Notes under the pieces: model-generated
What the model saw: only the letters and a program-made list of their open reading frames with translations
The model's database searches: none
Told to the model about the DNA's origin: nothing
In this document: positions 1,921 through 59,450 of the stretch, in pieces
Layout: every line of letters starts with the position of its first letter
How positions within the stretch are numbered: position 1 is the first letter of the stretch
Made by a program: the position numbers and the translations under genes
Virus genome (UHGV): UHGV-2031204
Reading direction: 5' to 3' (one strand)
Source of the DNA: a virus
Length of the DNA: 64,000 bases

Positions 1921-4900
1921 ATGCTGCTCATTAAACAGTTTAACCAACGCTTCTCGGTGCGTAAAACCGATGAGTTTGGTAATCCGAGGATTATCCCGCT
2001 CGAGAAGCTACAGATACCGCGAGGTTCTGTACTCCATGTCATTGATCTCGACCAGGTGGTGTTAGCGCCGCCTGCAACACTCGAGATTATTCAACCGTTA
2101 GAAAAACCTGCACAGGTTCGTCACCACTTTAAATTACCGGAAGACGGTATTAGCGGACATCCGCGCAACAAACCTGTTCAGGGGCAAGAACGTGCTATCT
2201 TTGCCTACCACCGTGCAAACCGCCCGATGCGTCGTCTTACCTCAGACGAACTGGTTCGCAAAGACTTAAAAGTTCTCCTGATCGAGAACTACACGCCGAT
2301 GCTATCGCACTACTACTATCCTGATACCCAGTTAGCCTGGTACGATAGATTGCGTAACATCCAACTGCTGATGATTAACCAGTTCAAATACAACACGCAA
2401 GAATACATGCGTCAGAACTATTTCGTTATTGAACTGGGTTCGGCATTACCTTCGTTCCAGAAGTTTCAAACAACTTATAACGACCGTGTTAAGAGCAAGA
2501 TTGAGAAGTTCCAGGACTTCAACTTGCTGTGGTTATTAGAACTGTTTGCTTGGGCTTATGGAAAACAATCCGATTCCTTATTCGCGGGAATGGATTTAAC
2601 TCAGCTGTCACGAATGAACTTTATCTTCACCCACAACACGGGCTTTACGTCCATGAACATGGGTGTTGTAGAGAAAATGCGTAAGTCCTCCGGCGGTCGT
2701 TTAAGTGACGACCAAATGGCCAGGATGTTCTACCGTACGCTGGTGCGTGTAATGACACAAGCACCGTCTAACGCGTACGAAGCGGAATTCCTAACGCCTG
2801 AAGGTGACGAACGTGTTTTCCTTAAAGACGTCGAAGAAGAAACCGTTGATGTTGTCGATGATGACGACGTTGTTAATGACGCTGTGGTCGAATCCGATAA
2901 CACCTTCGATGAAAAAGAAGACGTCGTTATTGAAGAACCGAAGGAAGACGTCAAACCGACGACAATTGTTGTCGAGAAAGTCATTCCGCACGACGAGATT
3001 ATTAAACAGGAAGCACAACGCTTAGCTGAAGCGGGCCGCTTAAGTTCTAAAGCTTATCAGTTCCTGTCAGAATCGTCTAAACGTTTCGTTCAGCTGCCTA
3101 ACCCGTATAACCCGAAAGAAACCTACGGGGAAGCGCTTACTGTTCACGAGAAAGACGTCGTCGTTAAAGCCGAGCCGAAAAAGGTTCAGCGACTTGTTAC
3201 CGACGAAGGGTGGGCCGAGAACGTCACCGACCAGATGGTGAAACAATACAACCAGACCATGATGACCAAAGACGTGCTGGCGGCGGTCGCCAGTTCACAA
3301 CGTTTGGGTCTGGCGATTCACAATCACACGGTGGAAAAAGAAGTTTCTGTTACAGGGACTATCGAGCACCACACTTTACGTGTTCAACCAGTCGGTGGTG
3401 AGCCGACAACCGTTCGCTTCTCTATCCCAGGCTTGACCGAGGACGGTACTTGGGTAGCTAATGGTGTCGAATACACCATGCGCCGACAACGTGTGGACTT
3501 ACCGATTCGTAAGGTTGCACCGGATACTGTCGCACTGACTACCGCATACGGTAAAAACTTTGTCCGTCGTAGTGATAAGGTCGCAAACGACTACGGTCGT
3601 TGGTTAACCAACGCGATTATCACACGCGCTGTTGACCCGACAAACACCGAAGTCACCGATGCACGTTTAGCAAATGTGTTCGATCCTACGCAACATCTGC
3701 CTCGTCAGTATACGGAGATTGCACGTCGTATTGCCAGCTTTAATGCGAATGGCTATATGTGGAACTTCGACTACAAAGAAGCCGTTAACTTCTTTAATGA
3801 CGAGCAACTCAGAGACGCCGATGCTGCCAAACTTTTGCCAGTGGCGAAACGTCCGCGTAGTGAAACAATCCTGGCAATGGATGACAAATCCATGCTTTAC
3901 GGTGTGAACGGAAACAAAGTTGAGCCGGTGGGAACTATCGCAGAGGTACTGGGCTTTAATAACCAGAAAGTGCCTCGCGAAATGACCGAGCTGTCTTTGA
4001 TGGGTAAATCTTTGTCGCTTGGTTTTATCTTCTCGTTCTACCTTGGACTCCAGGGAATGTTGAAACATTTCGGTATCCAGTACGAGTTGGTTCCCGCAGG
4101 GCAGCGTGTTGATAAGAATGCCTACGACAGTATTATTCGGCTACAAGACTGTAAACTTTTAGTTACATGCGATAACGATCAGCAGAAGATGATTCTGCAT
4201 GGTTTGGATCGCTATCTCAAACACCTGGTTGCTTATACCGAATCAGAAGCAGACCGCGAAGACATTTACCTGAACTTATTACGTGATGCAGATGGCCTAA
4301 CACCACGGTACATCAACGAGCTGAAACAGATGCGGTCCGCGTTTGTTGACGACATGCACGCACGTATCCTCAGGAAAATGGGTGAACCGGAAACCTTTAT
4401 TGGCTTGTTGGAACGTTCTAACGAACTGTTACAAACTGACCACTCTTTACCAGAGATTAACGGCGATGAAATGATGTTCTTAGGCAATCAGAGGATTGCC
4501 TACCACATCTATACTGCGATGGTCAGAGCGATGCGTAACTACAATAACGCACCGGGCAGTAACCGTAAGTTCGAACTGACGCAAGACATGGTTTGGGGTG
4601 CAATTAACTCCGACCCGTCGGTACTTTTGGCACCAGGCGCTAACCCTATCCAGTCAATTAAAGAAAAAGACGTTATTACGATGGGGGGTACAGGTGGCCG
4701 TAATCGTAAAACGATGGTCTACCACACGCGTGAATTCCAACCCAGTGATATCGGGATAGTCTCGGGTAACACCGTAGATAACGGTGACGTAGGTATTACA
4801 GCTTTCGTCACCAATAACCCACGTTTTGACACCGTTGACGGTACTACATTTAAACGTGAAGAGAAACCCCCGAAACCAAGCGATACCCTTTCGTTTATTG

Positions 4901-6087
4901 ACGGGTTAGTACCAGATACGTTAATGGACGACGCAAAGCGTCAAAACTTCGTTGGGATTCAGTTAGGTTCTGCCACCAGTTGTAATGGGGCAACCACAAC
5001 CCCGTATCGTACTGAACAGGAGAAATTCGTCGCACACCGTACGTCGGTGAAACATGCACGCGTTATTGATAAAGCAGGTAAGATTACTGGTCTGTCGAAA
5101 GACCACATTGAAATTACGTACGAAGATGGAAGTAAAGAAGCCTTTCCTCTAGGGCGCTGGTTCGGCCCCCACGAAGGTACCTTCTATCCGCACACCTTGG
5201 TAACACGCTGGAAAGCCGGTGACAAGCTCCCGGCCGGAGCAGTGATTACGTACAACGAGCAACACTTTGAACCTGATATTTACGATCCTACTCAGGTTTC
5301 CTGGAAAAACGGGGTGCTGGCTACCGTTGCTTTATTAGAAGCTGAAGAAGTTATCGAAGACTCCAATGCAATTTCTGAACGGTTCGCGAAGAAAATGGTA
5401 GGGCAGGTAACAAAGCTGAAAGAAGTAACGATTAACAGCAACCAAATGCTTTTGGAAATCGTGAATGAGGGCGACCACGTAGACGTCGATACAATCCTAT
5501 GCACGTTTACTGACGACTTGACAGGCGATATGAGTGCCTTTAGTCAGGAAGCAGCCGCAACGTTGCAAAGTTTAAGTTCGTACGCACCTCGTGCAGGGGT
5601 ACGTGGTATCGTGGATAAAATCGAAGTGGTGTATCACGGTGAAACCGAAGACATGACACCAAGCCTTGCTGAACTGGTGCGTAAATACGACAGAATTCGT
5701 CGTAAAGCCGCACTAGCAGTCGGACGAGGTGATCCGGTTTCAGGCAGTGTAAACGGCGACTACCGTGTCGAAGGTGTACCATTAGCCTTTAACTCACTTT
5801 GTGTTCGATTCTTTATTACACACGACGTTGAGATGGCCGCTGCGGATAAGATGGTTATTGCTAACCAGCTAAAAACCACCGTACAAGAAGTCATGTACGG
5901 CGACAACAAAACAGAGGATGGTGATGACCTGGACGTGTTGTTCGGTCGTGATTCTGTCGATGCGCGTATCGTAGGTTCAATCCAACGTATCGGTACCGCG
6001 AATGCTGTAGGTGAACAAGCCGGGATTCTCATCGGGCGTATACTCGATGGGGAAGCTGTGCCTGATTTACCCGCGACACTTAAATAA
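1921..6087 (+). CDS. RNA polymerase beta-like subunit (N-region homolog), 1388 aa with an acidic insertion
   Basis: [40 protein letters not shown] resembles beta [47 protein letters not shown] resembles HDDANRAL; poly-acidic stretch near 2820..2990; immediately follows the beta-prime-like gene. Confidence 0.5.
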   Translation: [1388 protein letters not shown]

Positions 6088-8663: not shown

Positions 8664-9467
8664 ATGGATAATTTAACACTGCGTTACAACTGTGTAGCGT
8701 TAGCCGGTGTTAACGCTCCAGCCACACTGGAGAAAGACGCGGATGGTTATTACCGCGTACTATTGGGCGCTTTGAATATCTTTAACTCGGAAGGGATTTT
8801 TTACGCCTATAACGAGTCCAAACACGTATTCGAACGCTCGAACATTTTTATGCGTAAAGTGAAAGCAGGGAATCTGTTCGGGGAAGAAGATCACCCAGCA
8901 CCAGAACCCGGTATGACCGAAGCGCAATGGATTGATCGCAACGAATGGATTGAGACGAAAAACGTCTGTATGCACATTCGCGAAGTTGAAGTGATTCCAA
9001 CCGACCAAACCTGTAACGGCTTGCCGGTCATGGAAATCTGGGGCTGGGTTAAGCCGAACCGTGAACGTGGTCCGTACTTAGCAGAAGCGCTCGAAAACCC
9101 ACACCAGAATGTGTGTTTCTCTCTGCGCGCAATCGTACGTGAAGGCTATGTGGGCGGTGTGAAAACACGTCGCTTAGATCGCCTGGTGACGTTCGACTGG
9201 GTTATCGAAGACGGGTTGCAGATTTGTAACAAATACTCTGCAATTCAACGCGGTAGTAAAGTGGCGCAAGAATCCACTCGTGTACTGCTGGACCGTCGTG
9301 TTTCTCTCCAGGCGCTGGAGGACATTCTGCGAAATCCTAACACTACGTCTGCCATCGCGACAGAATCTCGTCGTGGTGAAGTTCGTGCGTTAGCGCAGGA
9401 GTACCTGGCCATCGCTAATAAGAAAACTAACCTACGTGTTATGGGTTTAGGTAACGGGAAGTGGTAA
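8664..9467 (+). CDS. hypothetical protein
   Basis: 267-aa ORF; stop adjacent to next start. Confidence 0.7.
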   Translation: MDNLTLRYNCVALAGVNAPATLEKDADGYYRVLLGALNIFNSEGIFYAYNESKHVFERSNIFMRKVKAGNLFGEEDHPAPEPGMTEAQWIDRNEWIETKNVCMHIREVEVIPTDQTCNGLPVMEIWGWVKPNRERGPYLAEALENPHQNVCFSLRAIVREGYVGGVKTRRLDRLVTFDWVIEDGLQICNKYSAIQRGSKVAQESTRVLLDRRVSLQALEDILRNPNTTSAIATESRRGEVRALAQEYLAIANKKTNLRVMGLGNGKW

Positions 9468-22133: not shown

Positions 22134-24242
22134 ATGATACTACGTGAATCGGACTGGCGTTATTATCCAGGCGCTATTGTTGACGATAAAACCACAAACA
22201 AATCGTTTATCAAGTTTGCAAATATCCTAAAAAAGCTGGGTGTAAAGCACTATTATATTCATCTCGCCTTACATAACCCTTTACTGCAAGGGGTCGATCC
22301 TTTTGACGAAAACCTAACGGACGAACAGAAAGCGTACATCGCCATCGAGTGTGCTGAAAACCCTTGGTACTGGTTTCGAGAGTGCGTCAGGGTACCTGCG
22401 GACGGTATGAAATACGGGTCGCCGTTCCGTATCGACCGTGGTAACTTTTCGATGTATTGGATTTTCTTCAACAACATCGACGCCGCCGTCGAATTCCTCC
22501 GTCAGCACGGTAAAACCGTCGGGATGAGCGGATTACTGCTGTGGTTAATTCGGTTTCTGGAAAACTCTCGTACGATTCTTATCACAAAAGGACCGGCACT
22601 GCGTGAAGAAACCATTAACAAACTTAAGCAACTACGTAACGGTCTACCGTCGTACTTGTGGCCAGCACATCCAGACGATCCAGATAACCGCGAAACTTTT
22701 GCGTGTTTAGCCCAGGGTAACAAACTGATTACGGGCATCGGCCAAAACGACCCAGAATCAGCTAACGGTATCGGTCGTGGACTCACCGCTGGTCGTCTGT
22801 TCTCGGACGAAGGACCCTTTACCAAAAACGTACACCACATTCTACCGGCAGCGCTGGCATCCGGTACAGCTGCACGTCGTATTAACGAAGCGGAAGGTGT
22901 TCCTTACGGCAACGTATTCGCAACAACCCCGGGTGACTTAGCGACGGAAGAAGGCAAGTACATGTACGAGCTGATGACGTCAGGGATTATGTGGGATGAG
23001 CGCTATATCGACATTCCAACCCGTAAACAGCTCATTGACATCATCCGTTCTAACTCCACGGCAGAAGTCCCACGTATCATGTTCTACGTGAAGTACAACC
23101 ACCGCCAGCTCGGTACCAGCGATGAGCAATTAGCGGCAATGATTGCGAACGCCAAAGGTACTCCTGACCAGATCCGTCGTGACTTCGGGGGTGAATGGAC
23201 GACCGGTGGCTTGAACAAGCCGTTCTCAGCGGAAGATGCAGATCGTATGAATGCTTCCCGTATGCGTGCTGTGTTTAAAGATATTTCACCACAAAACTAC
23301 GTTACCGACTGGTACTACACCGAAGAGGAGATGATGACGAAGCTCAAAGACCGACACGTCATCGGGTTGGATACCTCTGAGGCTGTGGGTCGAGACGCGA
23401 TCGCCATGTCTATTGTTAACTCTGTGACCGCAGAGTACGCAGGTAAATTAACCGTTAACGAATCTAACGTTATCTCTTTCGCGATTCATTTAGCGGATTT
23501 TATGGTGCGATATCCTAACACGGTACTAATCCTGGAACGGCGGTCTACTGGCTCGTCTGTGGCTGATGCGATTATCCTGCAGTTACAGTCTCGTGTCACG
23601 GACTTACATCGTCGTTTATTTGTGAGAATCACTCAGGACTACTCACGTACGGACGATCTCTACAAAGAGTATCACCGTGGGCCTATTGGTAACGCTGAGA
23701 AGTTCTGGAATAAATTCCGTAAATATATCGGTTTCTCAACCGACCAGGAAAAACGTCGTAAACTGTACGGTGAGGTATTCACCACGGCGTTGCGCTTATC
23801 CGCGGATAAACTCCGTTGCGGAGAACTCATCGACCAGATACTTAACCTCGTGGAGAAAAATGGTCGTATTGACCACAAAGCTTCAGGTCATGACGACCTC
23901 GTGATTTCTTGGTTACTTGCGATGTGGTTATTGCTGCTTGGGAATAACCTGGGGCATTATGAAATCAACAACAGTCGATTGATGATGCGCAATCGTAATT
24001 TAGTCGAAAATCGTGAAGGGGTGGATGAGGAATTACAACTCGAGGAGGAGGCGCGACAGCAGGAACTGATGGGGGAAATTGAGCGTCTTGTGCGAACCAC
24101 AAACGGGTTATTAGACCCGGTTCAAGCAATGGCTGCTCGTAACCGTCTCCAGTCCCTCATTGCTCAACTTAACACTGATACACAAAACGTGGCGTCAATG
24201 GAAAGCTTGAGAGAGCTTATCCAACGCCAGAGGATGAAGTGA
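22134..24242 (+). CDS. terminase large subunit (ATPase plus RNase-H-like nuclease)
   Basis: LRQHGKTVGMSG resembles the T4 gp17-type Walker A (RQLGKT); HVIGLDTSEAVG and GHDDLVISWLLAMW resemble terminase nuclease acidic motifs; GGAGGTGAGGAG RBS. Confidence 0.7.
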   Translation: MILRESDWRYYPGAIVDDKTTNKSFIKFANILKKLGVKHYYIHLALHNPLLQGVDPFDENLTDEQKAYIAIECAENPWYWFRECVRVPADGMKYGSPFRIDRGNFSMYWIFFNNIDAAVEFLRQHGKTVGMSGLLLWLIRFLENSRTILITKGPALREETINKLKQLRNGLPSYLWPAHPDDPDNRETFACLAQGNKLITGIGQNDPESANGIGRGLTAGRLFSDEGPFTKNVHHILPAALASGTAARRINEAEGVPYGNVFATTPGDLATEEGKYMYELMTSGIMWDERYIDIPTRKQLIDIIRSNSTAEVPRIMFYVKYNHRQLGTSDEQLAAMIANAKGTPDQIRRDFGGEWTTGGLNKPFSAEDADRMNASRMRAVFKDISPQNYVTDWYYTEEEMMTKLKDRHVIGLDTSEAVGRDAIAMSIVNSVTAEYAGKLTVNESNVISFAIHLADFMVRYPNTVLILERRSTGSSVADAIILQLQSRVTDLHRRLFVRITQDYSRTDDLYKEYHRGPIGNAEKFWNKFRKYIGFSTDQEKRRKLYGEVFTTALRLSADKLRCGELIDQILNLVEKNGRIDHKASGHDDLVISWLLAMWLLLLGNNLGHYEINNSRLMMRNRNLVENREGVDEELQLEEEARQQELMGEIERLVRTTNGLLDPVQAMAARNRLQSLIAQLNTDTQNVASMESLRELIQRQRMK

Positions 24243-27108: not shown

Positions 27109-27118
27109 AAAATATTCT

Positions 27119-27156
27119 GGGGAGACTTCGGTCTCCCCCGTTTTTATTTTTTTTTG
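27119..27156 (+). terminator. intrinsic terminator
   Basis: GGGGAGACTTCGGTCTCCCC hairpin with TTCG loop followed by long T-run. Confidence 0.8.
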
Positions 27157-27659
27157 CCCAAAATCAAAAAACGCGATGAGAGCGATTCTAACGCATTTTT
27201 CTTCCAGGTGGTACGTTCGTACCCCTTACCCACGTTTATCTCTCCAGAGAGCTTCCTACGAAGAATTTGAGGGTGTTTTGGTTGTGGGTTTTGAATTTAT
27301 TTTCACTCAACGCCATGAAACCGCGATTTTGTCGTTCGTGCTGTCACGCCAACCCCTATCCCTGGGTGGGACGAAAACCCACCCCATCGTAAAACGCTCT
27401 AAAACGCTTTTTGACGCAAAAATCTTCTCAAGGGGTACACTTGGGTACCCGAACCCCGTTTAATTCGTTACAGCTCGATTGAGAGCGTCTGAGGGGCATT
27501 CCCCTCGACCAGTTCCACCCCACCCTCGGGTCGGCGAACCGGCCGCCGCGACGATCAAAAAAACATTCACGCTTCGCGTACTAGCGGATCAGCTGGATTG
27601 ATCAACTTACTGAATCTTCACACACTGAAGATTCAGGTTGAGTAGTTCTCTAGCTTTGG

Positions 27660-27940
27660 TTTTTTGATCTTTTAAAATTTTTAATACTCTTCGAGAGACT
27701 TAGTGTCTCTCGAATCGATCTTAAATTTTTAACTCTTTCAAAAATCTGATCTCAAGATCTCTTCCTTATACGCGTGTGCGCACGCACACGTATAGTATAA
27801 TATATTTATTTATAAATATATTATTCCTTTAGGATCAAAATAATAATACCTTTAGGTATTATTTAATTATATATTTTAATATATATTATATATAAATATA
27901 TATAAAACGCGCGCGATCCTTATTATGAGATCTGATCTCG
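27660..27940. other. candidate replication origin or DNA-unwinding element: AT-rich core with palindromes, flanked by a GATC cluster
   Basis: Eight GATC sites between 27666 and 27937; ~115-bp almost pure A/T core with palindrome AATAATACCTTTAGGTATTATT; no credible ORF. Confidence 0.3.
27767..27794. repeat. alternating pyrimidine-purine tract (Z-DNA-prone)
   Basis: TATACGCGTGTGCGCACGCACACGTATA at the edge of the AT-rich core; a second CGCGCGCG tract at 27908..27915. Confidence 0.8.
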
Positions 27941-28802
27941 CTATGACCCCCCTGAGGGGGTAGGGATCGGTGAGCGGTATTTTCCAGAAAAAACCGAAAA
28001 TCGTACCCGGGGTAATTCGCCAGGGTAAAATCCCCACCTGGGGGATCGGGTAGGGGTCTACCCCGAACACCTGACCGAGGGGTGTAAAACCCATTCCCCT
28101 TTTTCGAACGTTAAAACCCTATGGTATGTTCGGAGGATTTGCGTGGGATGATTTACAAATCCAACCACGAAGATTTTTCGGAGTTCAGGAGTTTACTGCT
28201 CACAGCTCAAACACGATTTCTGTCTGCGAAGATTCAGCAGAGCTCGAAGCCCCCTGACCGGATGTTGGTTTGGGGGTTGTTTTTTCGAGTGCATGGAATT
28301 TATTTCGCCGTGTACTGGGAAAAACAAAACGTTCAGCCTAACACTGGAGTTTGTTTTACTATGGGGTTTGAAAATCGATTTGCCAATCGAACTTACCCCG
28401 AGGGATTTTTGGAATCCCCAGAGTTCAGGTGCTCGGTACCGTTTCCCCGACTTACGAGTGTTGGGGAGCCCGCGCTATCAGTGACGCGTGGACCACATGA
28501 GAAAATCCGAGGGAACCGTGGCAGCCTCTGGGAGCGACGTTGGCGAAAGGTCCGTAGAACTTACCTGCGGGCAGCCGACGGTGGGATACGCTCCCAGAGG
28601 TGCGGCCAGAATGCGAATTACGACGTTGCGTCGAATGACCCTGCTCCAGGTAGCGCTGGCAGTGTGATGTCCTCTAGCTTGACGGCTCGCAAAGACGAGA
28701 GGGGTGCGTACTCCCGTTGAGAAACGCCGGTACGCAGCTGAATTATTTTTTTTTACAGCGTTTCCTGTTGGTGTGACACAAACCACGGCAGGAGATTTTA
28801 AT
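27940..28802 (+). other. hairpin-dense non-coding segment (candidate structured RNA or array of protein-binding palindromes)
   Basis: Stacked inverted repeats: CCCCCTGAGGGGG, AAAACAAA/TTTGTTTT, GGGATTTTTGGAATCCC, and a perfect 12-bp repeat CCTCTGGGAGCG/CGCTCCCAGAGG (28525..28536 and 28589..28600); only SD-less, Arg-rich ORFs. Confidence 0.3.
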
Positions 28803-29165
28803 ATGGATTCCAAAAACACCACTAACGTGGAATTGGATGTTCAGTACAGGCTCGATGAGTTGGCAGCTCTGTTAAAAGCCCCGGAGGACTGGGGATGCAC
28901 GGAGCCAGCGTTACTTGATTTGATCAAGAGCGTGCGGATTTACCAACCCGTCGAGATTTACATCACGGTAGTTGTGGAAGTTCACGATGGTTATTGCGTG
29001 GAACACATCCCTAGCCCTATTGCGCATTATCCGAGCTATCGAGAGTGTCTCCTGGTAGCCGTTCGTGAAGGCTTGGCTCGTGCGATTCGTGAACATGTTA
29101 CGCGATGCACGAACCCGATGGCAGCTGTTGATCAGGTGGACAGCAATGAGTTAGGAATTCTGTGA
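28803..29165 (+). CDS. hypothetical protein
   Basis: ATG 28803 after GGAG at 28791; stop overlaps the HslV-like start; ORF track 5' extension lacks an RBS. Confidence 0.6.
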   Translation: MDSKNTTNVELDVQYRLDELAALLKAPEDWGCTEPALLDLIKSVRIYQPVEIYITVVVEVHDGYCVEHIPSPIAHYPSYRECLLVAVREGLARAIREHVTRCTNPMAAVDQVDSNELGIL

Positions 29166-29665
29166 TGACCACGATTGTTTTTGACGGAAAGACGTTAGCT
29201 TGCGACGGTCAAGTCACCGTGGAAGAGCGTAGTGCTGCCACGCAATACCGTAAGATCCACACGCCGCCCGAGGGTACGACGTGGAATCTTTTGGGTGAAG
29301 ACGTAAAAGCGTTTGGTTTGGCAGGCGATGTCGCCGCATTGCAATCTGTGCGTCAAGAACTCACGCTTGAACGTTTCGGTGGTATCGAACGGGGTGGGGT
29401 TCGTTTTGAAACGACGTATCCCGAACAGATTGATTTTATCGTACTTGCTGTTTTGACAGACGGGCGCGTTATCGACGCCTCGAAATGCAAAGACAACAAA
29501 TACGCCAGTTACGTGTTTGTAGAGCCACCGTATGCGATAGGCTCAGGTGCACACTATGCCCTGGGTGCGTTAGGCGCAGGCGTTGACGCCCCCACTGCGG
29601 TGGAAGTGGCGAAACGTTACGACCTGTACAGCGGTGGACAAACGCAATCACTTAAGCTGTTTTGA
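29165..29665 (+). CDS. hslV: HslV-like Ntn-hydrolase peptidase (proteasome beta-type)
   Basis: MTTIVFDGKTLACDGQVT matches HslV [22 protein letters not shown] including the Thr nucleophile after Met; AFGLAGDVAA resembles AGFAGGTADA; YAIGSGAHYALGALGAG resembles IAIGSGGPYAQAAARAL; ~166 aa. Confidence 0.75.
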   Translation: MTTIVFDGKTLACDGQVTVEERSAATQYRKIHTPPEGTTWNLLGEDVKAFGLAGDVAALQSVRQELTLERFGGIERGGVRFETTYPEQIDFIVLAVLTDGRVIDASKCKDNKYASYVFVEPPYAIGSGAHYALGALGAGVDAPTAVEVAKRYDLYSGGQTQSLKLF

Positions 29666-29672
29666 TGTATTA

Positions 29673-29748
29673 GGGGGTGTAGCACAATTGGTAGTGCAGC
29701 GGTCTCCAAAACCGAAGGTTGGGAGTTCGAAACTTCCCGCCCCCGCCA
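29673..29748 (+). tRNA. tRNA-Trp (anticodon CCA)
   Basis: 76-nt cloverleaf read by hand: acceptor GGGGGTG/CGCCCCC, D-arm GCAC-AATTGGTA-GTGC, anticodon loop CTCCAAA, T-arm GGGAG-TTCGAAA-CTTCC, discriminator G, encoded CCA; very similar to E. coli tRNA-Trp. Confidence 0.85.
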
Positions 29749-29812
29749 GATTTTAGCCACTAAGTTCATTCTCAACACAGAAAACGATATGTGTTATCTG
29801 TGGGAGAAAATT

Positions 29813-30049
29813 ATGAACTTGTATCTAGTAGAAAGAACCGACAGCGTTGGTTGGGATGAATGTTCCGCAATGATTGTTGCAGCCCCTACGGAAGAAGCTG
29901 CATGTGCAATTCTTCCTTGCGAGTCTGGCTGGACTGGTGAGTTGTTATTGGATGGAGATGTGGAAGAGGTTACCCTCAAAGCCACACTCCTCGGTACGAC
30001 ACACTACCCAGAGGGGGAGGTTCTTTACACTGATTACCTATACGGCTAA
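29813..30049 (+). CDS. hypothetical small protein
   Basis: ATG 29813 after GGGAG; 78 aa; followed by hairpin GTGGGCTTCGGCCCAC. Confidence 0.5.
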   Translation: MNLYLVERTDSVGWDECSAMIVAAPTEEAACAILPCESGWTGELLLDGDVEEVTLKATLLGTTHYPEGEVLYTDYLYG

Positions 30050-57351: not shown

Positions 57352-59450
57352 TGAAGGGCACTCCAGTTCACGTGCGTGATCTGTGTAAACTGAACTCGGA
57401 TCAGGTGTGGCTATTGCGCGGCAGATATGAAGTGACGTTCGATGACGGGATAACCTTAAACATGTCAGGACGCCACATTAAAATCAGTTGGCCTTATTGG
57501 GGGCTAACACGATTTTATCCGCAGATCCCAATCAGTTCGCAAATGGCGTATAAACATGGCGACACCGCTACAGATGACGCACATCTGAAGTTTATGTCAT
57601 TGGCAGCTGTGGCAGCACGTAAAGCGGGTGTGGATTTAGCAGATACCCGCTATTTATTGCAGCAGCACGTCTATGCGGATGCGTTTAACTTATCGGTGAA
57701 AAATCTGTTGTCGTATTGTGTCACGATTGACTACGATACGATGATGGAAATTTACCAACACCGAAATTTTACGCAGATTCATCAGTGGGCACAAATGTAT
57801 CCTACTGGGTACGACGAAGAAGGTCGGGATATGATCGAAGAAGCGTATCTTCTTATCGAAGATATCTTCAAAGACCCACAACTTCGTTTAAACCCTGTGG
57901 TGATGTCGGTCTTGGATAAAACCATCAAAATGAACCAGGTTCTCCAGGCGTATATACGCGGGAAAACGTCAGAGATTGATTCTCGCGTTTATTCTAACCA
58001 GGTATGGGAAGGTTTCTTTACGGGCCTACATTCTGTAATTAGCCGTCTGAAAGAAGCGGGAGCGACGTCACGTTCTCACCTGTATAATACCGATAAAATC
58101 GCCGATGCGGAATATGCGTCACGTAAGCTACAGTTAGCAGCCAACGTGTTAATGTATTTCGAATACGACGATTGCGGTACGCATCATGTTCACCGCCACA
58201 CGTTTACAGAAAGTAAACTGGAGCGTAAGAAGTACGATGCGATGGTAGGGATGCGTTATCGTTTTGAAGGCGTGGGAGGCCCGTGGCTACGATTCGAGAA
58301 AGGGGAGTTTGAGAAAGTCTTAGGTAAACCTATTGAGTTTCGTACCGCGATGTGCTGTAAGGGGATGGCACGTCAAAGCATTTGTGCAACGTGCATGGGT
58401 GATTTGATTTATAACCTTTCGCCGGGAACGTCCCCAGGTCACTTGGCTTCAACCTCGATATCTGAAAAGGGTACGCAGGGGATTCTCTCAACGAAGCACT
58501 TGGACTTCTTACGTTATCTGCTGAATCTGGTACTGACTCCGAGAATGCGGGATTATCTTGGGGAGTATAAACACAACTCCGTAAAAGGGTTGAGTTTACG
58601 GGAGAAACCGCAGTACGGTAATTGGGATGAATACCAACTCGTTATTTCTGATGAAGTCTATTCTGAAATCAGCCAAATCGCGTATCATGACGATTTGGAA
58701 GTGATCGACGAAACGGCATTGCCGGAGATTAACGAACTGACCTTTTTGCGGTTGGATGAAGCTGGGAATGTGTTGGCTGAAGATCCCATTGACGTCCGTA
58801 TGGGGGTTTGTGGTAACTTCTCGAAAGCCTTCTTGCATTTCTTCCTGAAACAGCGCGATAACATTACCTTCCCGTCGAAGAAGCTGGTACGGATTCCCCT
58901 GAAAGGATGGAAACCGAGTTGGCCGATACTAATTTATACGAATCGGTCTGAATCTATGGCGGAGTTTGTAGCAGGGTTAGAATTGAAACTTCGTTCGGTT
59001 GCGTCTGATAAATCGGATACTTTCGAACAGTTCTCTGATGACTCAATGCGTTTGAGCAAGAAGTCGGGTAAGGTAAAACCAACGACTCTGGTTCAGATGC
59101 GCGGTGCTACGGAGAAACAATGTACGCACGCGTTATTTGATGTGTTTAAATATATCCAACGTAAGCTCGGTGGTATTCCGATGACACACATCGCGATTAT
59201 GCTGGCGATATCACGCGTTGAATCACCGACCAATCCTTTCCCGGCGGTTGGGTTTGATAGTGAAGATGCTGATGTGATGGATGGCAAACGTTTCGAGGAT
59301 CACAATACGTTGATTGCGATGCGTTCAGCTGTACCGATGTTGTTATTCGAAGGCCAACAGAAAAACCTGGACAACGTGCGTTTCTACACGTCGCGTAAAC
59401 GTCCGGCGTCGTTATACGACAATACGGTGGCCGCGACTATCATTGAGTAA
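57351..59450 (+). CDS. multisubunit RNA polymerase beta-prime subunit, C-terminal module
   Basis: CATCMGDLIYN...SISEKGTQGILSTKHL aligns with beta-prime CAHCYGRDLARG...SIGEPGTQLTMRTFH (trigger-loop region G); start overlaps upstream stop (ATAATG). Confidence 0.8.
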   Translation: MKGTPVHVRDLCKLNSDQVWLLRGRYEVTFDDGITLNMSGRHIKISWPYWGLTRFYPQIPISSQMAYKHGDTATDDAHLKFMSLAAVAARKAGVDLADTRYLLQQHVYADAFNLSVKNLLSYCVTIDYDTMMEIYQHRNFTQIHQWAQMYPTGYDEEGRDMIEEAYLLIEDIFKDPQLRLNPVVMSVLDKTIKMNQVLQAYIRGKTSEIDSRVYSNQVWEGFFTGLHSVISRLKEAGATSRSHLYNTDKIADAEYASRKLQLAANVLMYFEYDDCGTHHVHRHTFTESKLERKKYDAMVGMRYRFEGVGGPWLRFEKGEFEKVLGKPIEFRTAMCCKGMARQSICATCMGDLIYNLSPGTSPGHLASTSISEKGTQGILSTKHLDFLRYLLNLVLTPRMRDYLGEYKHNSVKGLSLREKPQYGNWDEYQLVISDEVYSEISQIAYHDDLEVIDETALPEINELTFLRLDEAGNVLAEDPIDVRMGVCGNFSKAFLHFFLKQRDNITFPSKKLVRIPLKGWKPSWPILIYTNRSESMAEFVAGLELKLRSVASDKSDTFEQFSDDSMRLSKKSGKVKPTTLVQMRGATEKQCTHALFDVFKYIQRKLGGIPMTHIAIMLAISRVESPTNPFPAVGFDSEDADVMDGKRFEDHNTLIAMRSAVPMLLFEGQQKNLDNVRFYTSRKRPASLYDNTVAATIIE

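Follow-up and report, generated by a model that had tools for sequence, protein, structure and literature searches.

A PPH-family N-terminal-threonine peptidase gene and its genomic setting in a Seoul-like nucleus-forming jumbo phage

A new phage member of the proteasome family

In the proteasome family, PPH is regarded as the first branch to be truly viral; its proteins comprise approximately 140 residues and possess neither a propeptide nor the S12/H5 elements (Fuchs et al. 2021, PMC8665760). Helix H2 is absent only in PPH and RPC, and the missing C-terminal extension separates PPH from RPC (PMC8665760). The closest stand-alone relative, BPH (Betaproteobacteria proteasome homolog), was concluded to act independently of an HslU-type activator and is inert in standard assays, and the Arg86/Arg89/Lys90 cluster of HslV (ClpQ) is needed for activity and remodelled on HslU binding (PMC5777263). 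In phages, the RefSeq label 'peptidase HslV family' has been assigned to SPN3US gp001, EL ORF015 and Asesino gp1, Asesino being one of the Erwinia jumbo phages so labelled, and HslV-like genes without HslU were remarked on in the 2020 paper on pSal-SNUABM-04 (PMC7823757). Here, we analysed a PPH-family N-terminal-threonine peptidase gene (HslV/proteasome-beta-like) at positions 29165..29665 (+ strand; 166 amino acids, TGA stop) of a 64,000-nucleotide stretch of the virus genome UHGV-2031204, referred to as the window in the following. The peptidase, which an earlier note on this DNA had pointed out, is not a new observation: the family is already annotated in SPN3US, EL and Asesino, and HslV-like genes without HslU were published on in 2020. 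The peptidase family, its distribution among phages and the remark on the missing HslU are all contained in earlier literature or annotation, and the gene is a new member. What the present analysis adds is the variable pattern of two peptidase types, termed type-1 (to which the window gene belongs) and type-2, and of an HslU-like ATPase that was lost repeatedly, as well as a structured RNA motif upstream of the peptidase gene.

The open reading frame (ORF) reported previously is present on the + strand with 166 codons followed by TGA, and its product matched PHROG 1040, the counterpart of PPH in that database, with E=2.3e-35 over residues 1-165. This match and a ratio of nonsynonymous to synonymous substitution rates (dN/dS) of 0.09-0.20 among four members of the lineage place the signal far above anything expected by chance, and purifying selection acts on the gene. 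Using the window protein alone, no match was obtained in Pfam even at E<=10, a phmmer search of the PDB found nothing, and phmmer with Escherichia coli HslV as query did not recover the window protein; its homology surfaces only via family profiles. When the family profile was run against structure chains, HslV came first over the full length (E=1e-10 to 1e-7), followed by 20S beta subunits and BPH. Pfam PF00227 was matched by nine of 14 family members, and the hhalign homology comparison resulted in a probability of 97% (E=1.3e-10). The profile search that the earlier note had suggested as a check has thereby returned a significant match to the HslV/20S beta families, and the structure model it had also suggested predicts, with confidence, the alpha-beta-beta-alpha sandwich of N-terminal nucleophile (Ntn) hydrolases. 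HslV is the top match by sequence and by structure. Profiles, fold model and a complete set of catalytic residues agree on a proteasome-beta/HslV-type Ntn peptidase homolog, whose relationship to HslV and to the 20S beta subunits is remote but significant.

The candidate catalytic residues of the window protein are Thr2 (Thr1 after removal of Met), Asp14, Lys30, Gly51, Ser127 and Asp153. Thr2 and Asp14 are conserved in 115 of the 116 family sequences, and Lys30, Gly54, Gly126-Ser127-Gly128, Asp153 and Ser/Thr156 in all of them (116/116). In the hhalign alignment, proteasome Asp17, Lys33, Gly47 of the oxyanion hole and Ser129/Asp166 map to D14, K30, G51/G54, S127 and D153, and the C-terminal D-x-x-S-G-G is closer to Asp166/Ser169/Gly170 of 20S beta subunits than to C-I-Y-T-N of E. 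coli HslV. Provided that Met is removed, the protein would carry a nucleophilic Thr at its mature N-terminus, and it is apparently a compact and active threonine peptidase.

The correct position of the start codon is essential for this assignment. A Shine-Dalgarno sequence AGGA can be read from the sequence at 29153..29156 (+), 8 nucleotides 5' of the peptidase ATG, and this ATG (29165) shares nucleotides with the stop of the upstream ORF in the sequence TGATG, which suggests translational coupling of the two. The sole alternative start is a GTG at 29162 that would give a second Met; it is unsupported because the relatives begin with MTT, namely 109 of 116 aligned sequences and 133 of 143 representative clusters, and because the profile matches begin at residue 1 in nearly all 150 representatives, among the matches listed. 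The Thr placed by the earlier note right after the initiator Met is backed by the same two lines of evidence. As to the motifs quoted there, AGDVAA and AIGSGAHYA are correct, whereas 'GDGQ' was a misreading of CDGQ in LACDGQ.

The window is colinear with the complete genome of a relative, NZ_CP173450.1, at 82.5% identity, and the peptidase gene reaches 94% nucleotide identity as compared with this value for the whole window. No other segment is as well conserved between the two, and its immediate flanks are unalignable. The closest protein cluster, P0001, was named from a Salmonella assembly and contains 400 member sequences; its 191-residue protein looks like an over-extended gene call. P0002 (148 amino acids) was considered as an N-terminally truncated variant and rejected, since MTTIV is intact in the DNA and the short form is a gene-calling artefact. 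In P0005, located on a Logan contig of 105,912 bp, the C-terminal 68 residues match positions 99-166 of the window protein at 98.5% identity and the first 91 residues are unrelated, pointing to a rearranged gene without the catalytic N-terminal half.

With regard to its family, the window protein is a member of PPH rather than a true HslV, and it forms, within the proteasome family (MEROPS T1), a compact viral side line of HslV/BPH. The HslV-like assignment of the earlier note was right about the fold family, but the protein is no member of HslV proper: the NCBIfam score is low, helix H2 is missing and conservation does not extend to the residues that respond to HslU. More specifically, the protein scored 12.6 bits in comparison to cut-offs of 157.75 (TIGR03692) and 137 (PRK05456), and in its model H1 is short (58-66) and H2 is replaced by a beta-hairpin (67-77). 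By hhalign, R86 of the basic HslV cluster falls into a gap, R89 corresponds to Ile and K90 to Asp, and HslV Lys28 is aligned to Ala25. In line with PPH, the window protein lacks H2 and the C-terminal extension, ending two residues past the last strand, has no propeptide and no C-terminal S12/H5, and keeps Thr1/Asp17/Lys33/Gly47; tailed phages and prophages are the carriers, and BPH and HslV the nearest cellular relatives. It deviates from the PPH norm of about 140 amino acids in that two beta-hairpin insertions (~34-47 and ~67-90), which are common to the jumbo-phage subgroup, extend it to 166 residues. The assembled family has a median length of 142 amino acids with a range of 129-176 (116 sequences), is very large with 536 clusters (50% identity) at E<=1e-30, and was found in 70 phage records ranging from jumbo phages down to phages of 40-50 kb. 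Unlike the window protein, BPH keeps H2 and a long acidic pore loop, is cellular and forms tetradecamers. HslV, the peptidase component of the ATP-dependent HslUV protease of bacteria, forms a double hexameric ring to which the C-terminal tails of HslU bind. The assignment to PPH, whose published representative is WP_042125023.1, was made by the published criteria.

HslU-like ATPases and a divergent paralog

The absence of an HslU-type ATPase from the 64 kb, as stated in the earlier note, was borne out by all approaches: phmmer with two phage HslU-like proteins and a 26-sequence profile identified no AAA+/HslU-like ORF in the window, and neither did a Walker A scan and Pfam, applied to the large window ORFs, reveal an HslU-like protein. 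An HslU-like gene hidden just beyond the window was rejected as an explanation, because the complete relative genome NZ_CP173450.1 (221,873 bp) was searched in six frames with the same two proteins and the profile, and no HslU-like ORF was found (best E 0.4). In contrast to HslV, the window peptidase has no adjacent hslU gene and none anywhere in its phage lineage. The term 'orphan' is therefore appropriate for the window lineage, as judged from the complete relative genome, but not for the wider group, in which many relatives encode an HslU-like protein.

Examples of these phage HslU-like AAA+ proteins (PHROG 4339) are RAY gp116, Machina gp129 and MET_P1_082_240 'hslU'. RAY gp116 was considered as an ortholog of the peptidase and rejected, since it is the 569-residue HslU-like ATPase; its GFP fusion localises with the DNA of the phage within the phage nucleus (Prichard et al.). 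The phage AAA+ proteins are encoded by nucleus-forming jumbo phages of the group that includes the window phage, and represent a natural motor candidate for a phage HslV-like peptidase. Where present, their gene either adjoins a divergent paralog of the peptidase gene or stands alone, and it is absent from the window lineage. Predicted structures in the BFVD database include proteasome-like Ntn folds in many further jumbo phages (Noxifer, PhiPA3 gp331, Psa21, Special G, Bosolaphorus, Moabite, CcrBL9 and CcrColossus). RAY-type phages, which possess the HslU-like gene, may therefore harbour a peptidase partner as well, one too divergent to be picked up by sequence searches.

The divergent paralog, an HslV/PPH-like protein of type-2, is encoded outside the window at 58451-58939 (- strand) of NZ_CP173450.1; it has 163 amino acids, starts with MTTVLV and retains Asp, Lys, GSG and Asp at their positions. 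Its gene lies approximately 2 kb upstream of the HslU-like gene in Machina, Phobos, CR5, pEa_SNUABM_6 and others, and the pair looks like a phage HslVU-like cassette. In the window lineage, the syntenic block running from Dam via the type-2 gene to gp127 is kept, and gp128-gp130 including the ATPase gene are absent. Within the SPN3US group, a full-length HslU-like gene occurs in only three records and a 73-residue N-terminal remnant in four, and SPN3US, the SPFM phages and the EL group gave no HslU-like match at E<=1e-20. The remnants, in EC001, JN03, SPLA1a and Lh1B, consist of the first ~73 residues at 92-94% identity, and the full gene in three relatives encodes 586 amino acids; such remnants indicate a recent decay of the phage ATPase.

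All SPN3US-group records, the SPFM phages and EL retain the type-1 peptidase gene, with or without the HslU-like gene, and in phages of 40-50 kb members of the peptidase family are located in varied, moron-like positions. Because the type-1 peptidase is kept after loss of the ATPase and is present in small phages, it is not tied to a phage-encoded HslU. The jumbo-phage subgroup offers a natural experiment, in which the peptidase, its divergent paralog and the HslU-like ATPase occur in differing combinations among close relatives, and genetics in SPN3US or Asesino could reveal whether such a phage needs a compartmentalised protease of its own, and what this protease degrades.

Proposed mode of action and alternative explanations

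Based on sequence comparison, the structure model and the analogy to BPH, we consider it fairly probable that the window peptidase is an accessory PPH peptidase acting independently of HslU. This reading is favoured because the protein lacks both the ATPase-facing helix H2 and the residues that respond to HslU, and the predicted remodelling of the ATPase-docking face counts mildly against a classical pairing with HslU. Methionine aminopeptidase accepts Thr at position 2, and the host enzyme would remove Met1 and expose the Thr, which could then serve as nucleophile and general base. The pairs Asp14-Lys30 and Ser127-Asp153 might tune this Thr as in 20S beta subunits, and the backbone of Gly51 would form the oxyanion hole. 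Self-assembly probably takes place via the retained H3/H4 side, and the resulting particle is expected to work without an HslU-type activator, as concluded for BPH. We propose an accessory, non-core peptidase that might target peptides, unfolded proteins or specific proteins in the infected cell, and that would be expressed from a conserved unit including tRNA genes.

Several points weigh against this proposal. Many related jumbo phages do encode an HslU-like AAA+ protein of 570-590 residues, at a distance of about 100 kb from the peptidase gene, and a Lys is present at the column of HslV Lys28 in 40 of the 116 family members. Every known host of the phage group has HslU, and the hosts recorded for these phages (Salmonella, E. 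coli, Erwinia and Pseudomonas) encode HslUV. A partnership with an ATPase through a non-canonical interface is conceivable. Moreover, BPH, as the nearest stand-alone relative, was inert in standard assays, so that conserved catalytic residues guarantee no measurable proteolysis, and our literature search for experimental work on any PPH protein found no study.

The foremost alternative is that the peptidase docks on the hexamer of host HslU, or on a different AAA+ unfoldase of the host, for instance ClpX, and that the resulting ATP-dependent hybrid protease diverts the proteolysis of the host to the benefit of the phage; phages with an HslU-like gene of their own would simply bring the motor along. 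The HslUV equipment of the hosts, the Lys present in part of the family, HslV as top match in both sequence and structure, and the frequency of HslU-like genes among related jumbo phages all speak in favour of such a hybrid, as does the fact that the RAY HslU-like protein is expressed and enters the phage nucleus. We nevertheless regard it as unlikely, since both H2 and the HslU-remodelled Arg86/Arg89/Lys90 cluster are absent and an Ala is aligned to Lys28, a residue that is reportedly important for binding of the HslU C-terminus. The genomic distribution argues in the same direction: the HslU-like gene of Machina-type phages lies ~2 kb from the divergent paralog and away from the type-1 gene, the type-1 gene persisted where the phage HslU-like gene was lost, which happened repeatedly, and RAY-type phages possess the HslU-like gene without a detectable PPH type-1 match.

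It is improbable that the protein is, instead of a bulk protease, a connectase-like, sequence-specific processing enzyme or transpeptidase which, perhaps as a monomer or small oligomer, cuts or ligates a single phage or host protein, for example a host defence factor. Connectases are monomeric, lack H1 as well as H2 and have ligase activity, and the window protein does not correspond to this description. We attach a similarly low likelihood to the far-reaching idea that PPH represents a self-sufficient viral 'mini-proteasome', i.e. a protease for host takeover or counter-defence in nucleus-forming jumbo phages that operates alone, together with the paralog, or by capturing host HslU. If this idea were true, the retention of the peptidase through the loss of the HslU-like gene would reflect a function linked to the persistent, carrier-state lifestyle of Seoul-like phages, and the structured RNA upstream could be a dedicated cis-regulator of the peptidase.

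Very unlikely is a hetero-oligomeric particle in which only the window peptidase and the type-2 paralog together make up a functional protease. Both paralogs coexist in the window lineage and in Machina-type phages, and both begin with MTT and retain Asp, Lys, GSG and Asp at their positions, but their genes are ~90 kb apart, and in tblastn SPN3US-type phages, EL and small phages gave matches to type-1 alone and Phobos/CR5-type phages to type-2 alone. Because some phages match one type only, the two paralogs are separable. Finally, the gene could be a functionless relic, catalytically dead or in decay, in favour of which one may cite its accessory nature outside the chimallivirus core and the rearranged copy P0005 without the N-terminal catalytic half. 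This reading is already strongly disfavoured and hardly credible in view of catalytic residues that are invariant across 116 sequences, the dN/dS of 0.09-0.20 of a gene that is the best conserved between window and relative, and a family size of 536 clusters at E<=1e-30.

A function of the HslU-independent peptidase candidate as prohead maturation protease was also considered and rejected, given that the morphogenetic protease, of the S80 family, is encoded by another gene, which colinearity with CP173450 171118-171921 places at 8664-9467 of the window. The variable, moron-like positions of PPH genes in small phages count against such a role as well.

Upstream RNA motif, neighbouring genes and host phage

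At the head of the transcription unit leading into the peptidase gene, we identified a single-copy structured RNA candidate of 70 nucleotides (28675..28744, + strand). It consists of an invariant CUCG/CGAG hairpin and a long helix around a GNRA-capped hairpin, and is present in 52 jumbo-phage records (Seoulvirus, Erskinevirus, Machinavirus and Wellingtonvirus) with diverging flanks. RNAalifold revealed compensatory double changes in seven of 18 pairs, 98.6% of the cells are paired as compared with 34-45% in slid controls, and G-U pairs assign the motif to the + strand. A covariance model detected exactly one copy per genome with 87-89 bits, and Rfam 15 gave no match at E<=1. Since the thermodynamic stability is not unusual (z = -0.6), it is the covariation alone that supports the motif. 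It is situated 40-120 nucleotides before the first ORF of the peptidase unit, and 55 nucleotides before gp001 in SPN3US. Wellingtonvirus phages, for which no type-1 peptidase match was obtained, carry the motif as well; it therefore marks the locus and not the gene.

The motif lies within a stretch of ~1.7 kb upstream of the cassette (27109-28800) that contains no convincing ORF, although genes are densely packed in the rest of the phage, and has a G+C content of 0.51 in comparison to ~0.45 in its surroundings. The matching stretch of CP173450 (151405-153492) was likewise left unannotated by PGAP. A second patch at ~27754-27937 shares 70% identity with SPN3US 56-258, and a strong bidirectional terminator-like hairpin is found at 27119-27138.

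The two small neighbouring genes mentioned in the earlier note exist as ORFs at 28803-29165 and 29789/29813-30049, and the tRNA-Trp gene next to the peptidase gene (anticodon CCA; 29673..29748, + strand) was detected by ARAGORN and by Rfam (tRNA, 62.1 bits). The upstream ORF (28803..29165, + strand, 120 amino acids) is lineage-specific: a homolog was found only in one Logan contig with 92.5% identity, ORFs at the equivalent position in an E. coli third-party annotation (TPA) contig, SPAsTU, Machina and pEa_SNUABM_29 gave no match, none was obtained in PHROGs, NCBIfam and PADLOC, and the segment is unalignable to NZ_CP173450.1. Due to this lineage specificity, the coupled ORF was rejected as a conserved partner or inhibitor of the peptidase. 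Downstream, a small conserved ORF of PHROG 5444 (29813..30049, + strand) opens at 29789, with ATG 29813 being the likely start; the PHROG match (E=8e-22) begins at residue 9. Its product is ~50% identical to SPN3US gp264, Asesino gp4 and pEa_SNUABM_29 4690-4932, all of which are encoded just past tRNA-Trp, and these three phages share with the window the order of peptidase gene, tRNA-Trp and PHROG-5444 ORF. CP173450 carries a different tRNA at this position, annotated as Ile (the anticodon loop reads AAT). Because both flanks of the peptidase gene are unalignable between the window and CP173450, an exchange of cassettes around a conserved gene is suggested. PADLOC gave no match for the peptidase, the type-2 paralog and both flanking ORFs, and hence no link of these to known defence systems.

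The window derives from a Seoul-like chimallivirus, a nucleus-forming jumbo phage. Its large ORFs match hallmarks of phiKZ-like nucleus-forming jumbo phages, namely the split virion and non-virion RNA polymerase beta/beta', and furthermore the tail sheath, the terminase and a divergent DNA polymerase. Because megablast of the locus against phage records gave no match, the phage is not a sequenced isolate; the isolates nearest to it, with ~73-75% over the terminase region, are the Erwinia phages Stratton, phiEaH2 and Asesino, Salmonella phage SPAsTU and the SPN3US group. Members of the window lineage have been deposited as complete circular 'plasmids' of ~222 kb from E. coli 98232 (NZ_CP173450.1) and Enterobacter ludwigii (NZ_CP134650.1), and the lineage is also represented by a 222,841-bp contig in the E. 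coli TPA assembly GCA_026204915.1. Persistent, non-temperate Seoul-like jumbo phages have been reported in bacterial assemblies (bioRxiv 10.1101/2024.12.31.630880), and the plasmid-like records of the window lineage fit this description. The large terminase ORF of the window (22134-24242, + strand, 702 amino acids) matches PHROG 2 in two stretches, the best of which covers residues 1-329 only.

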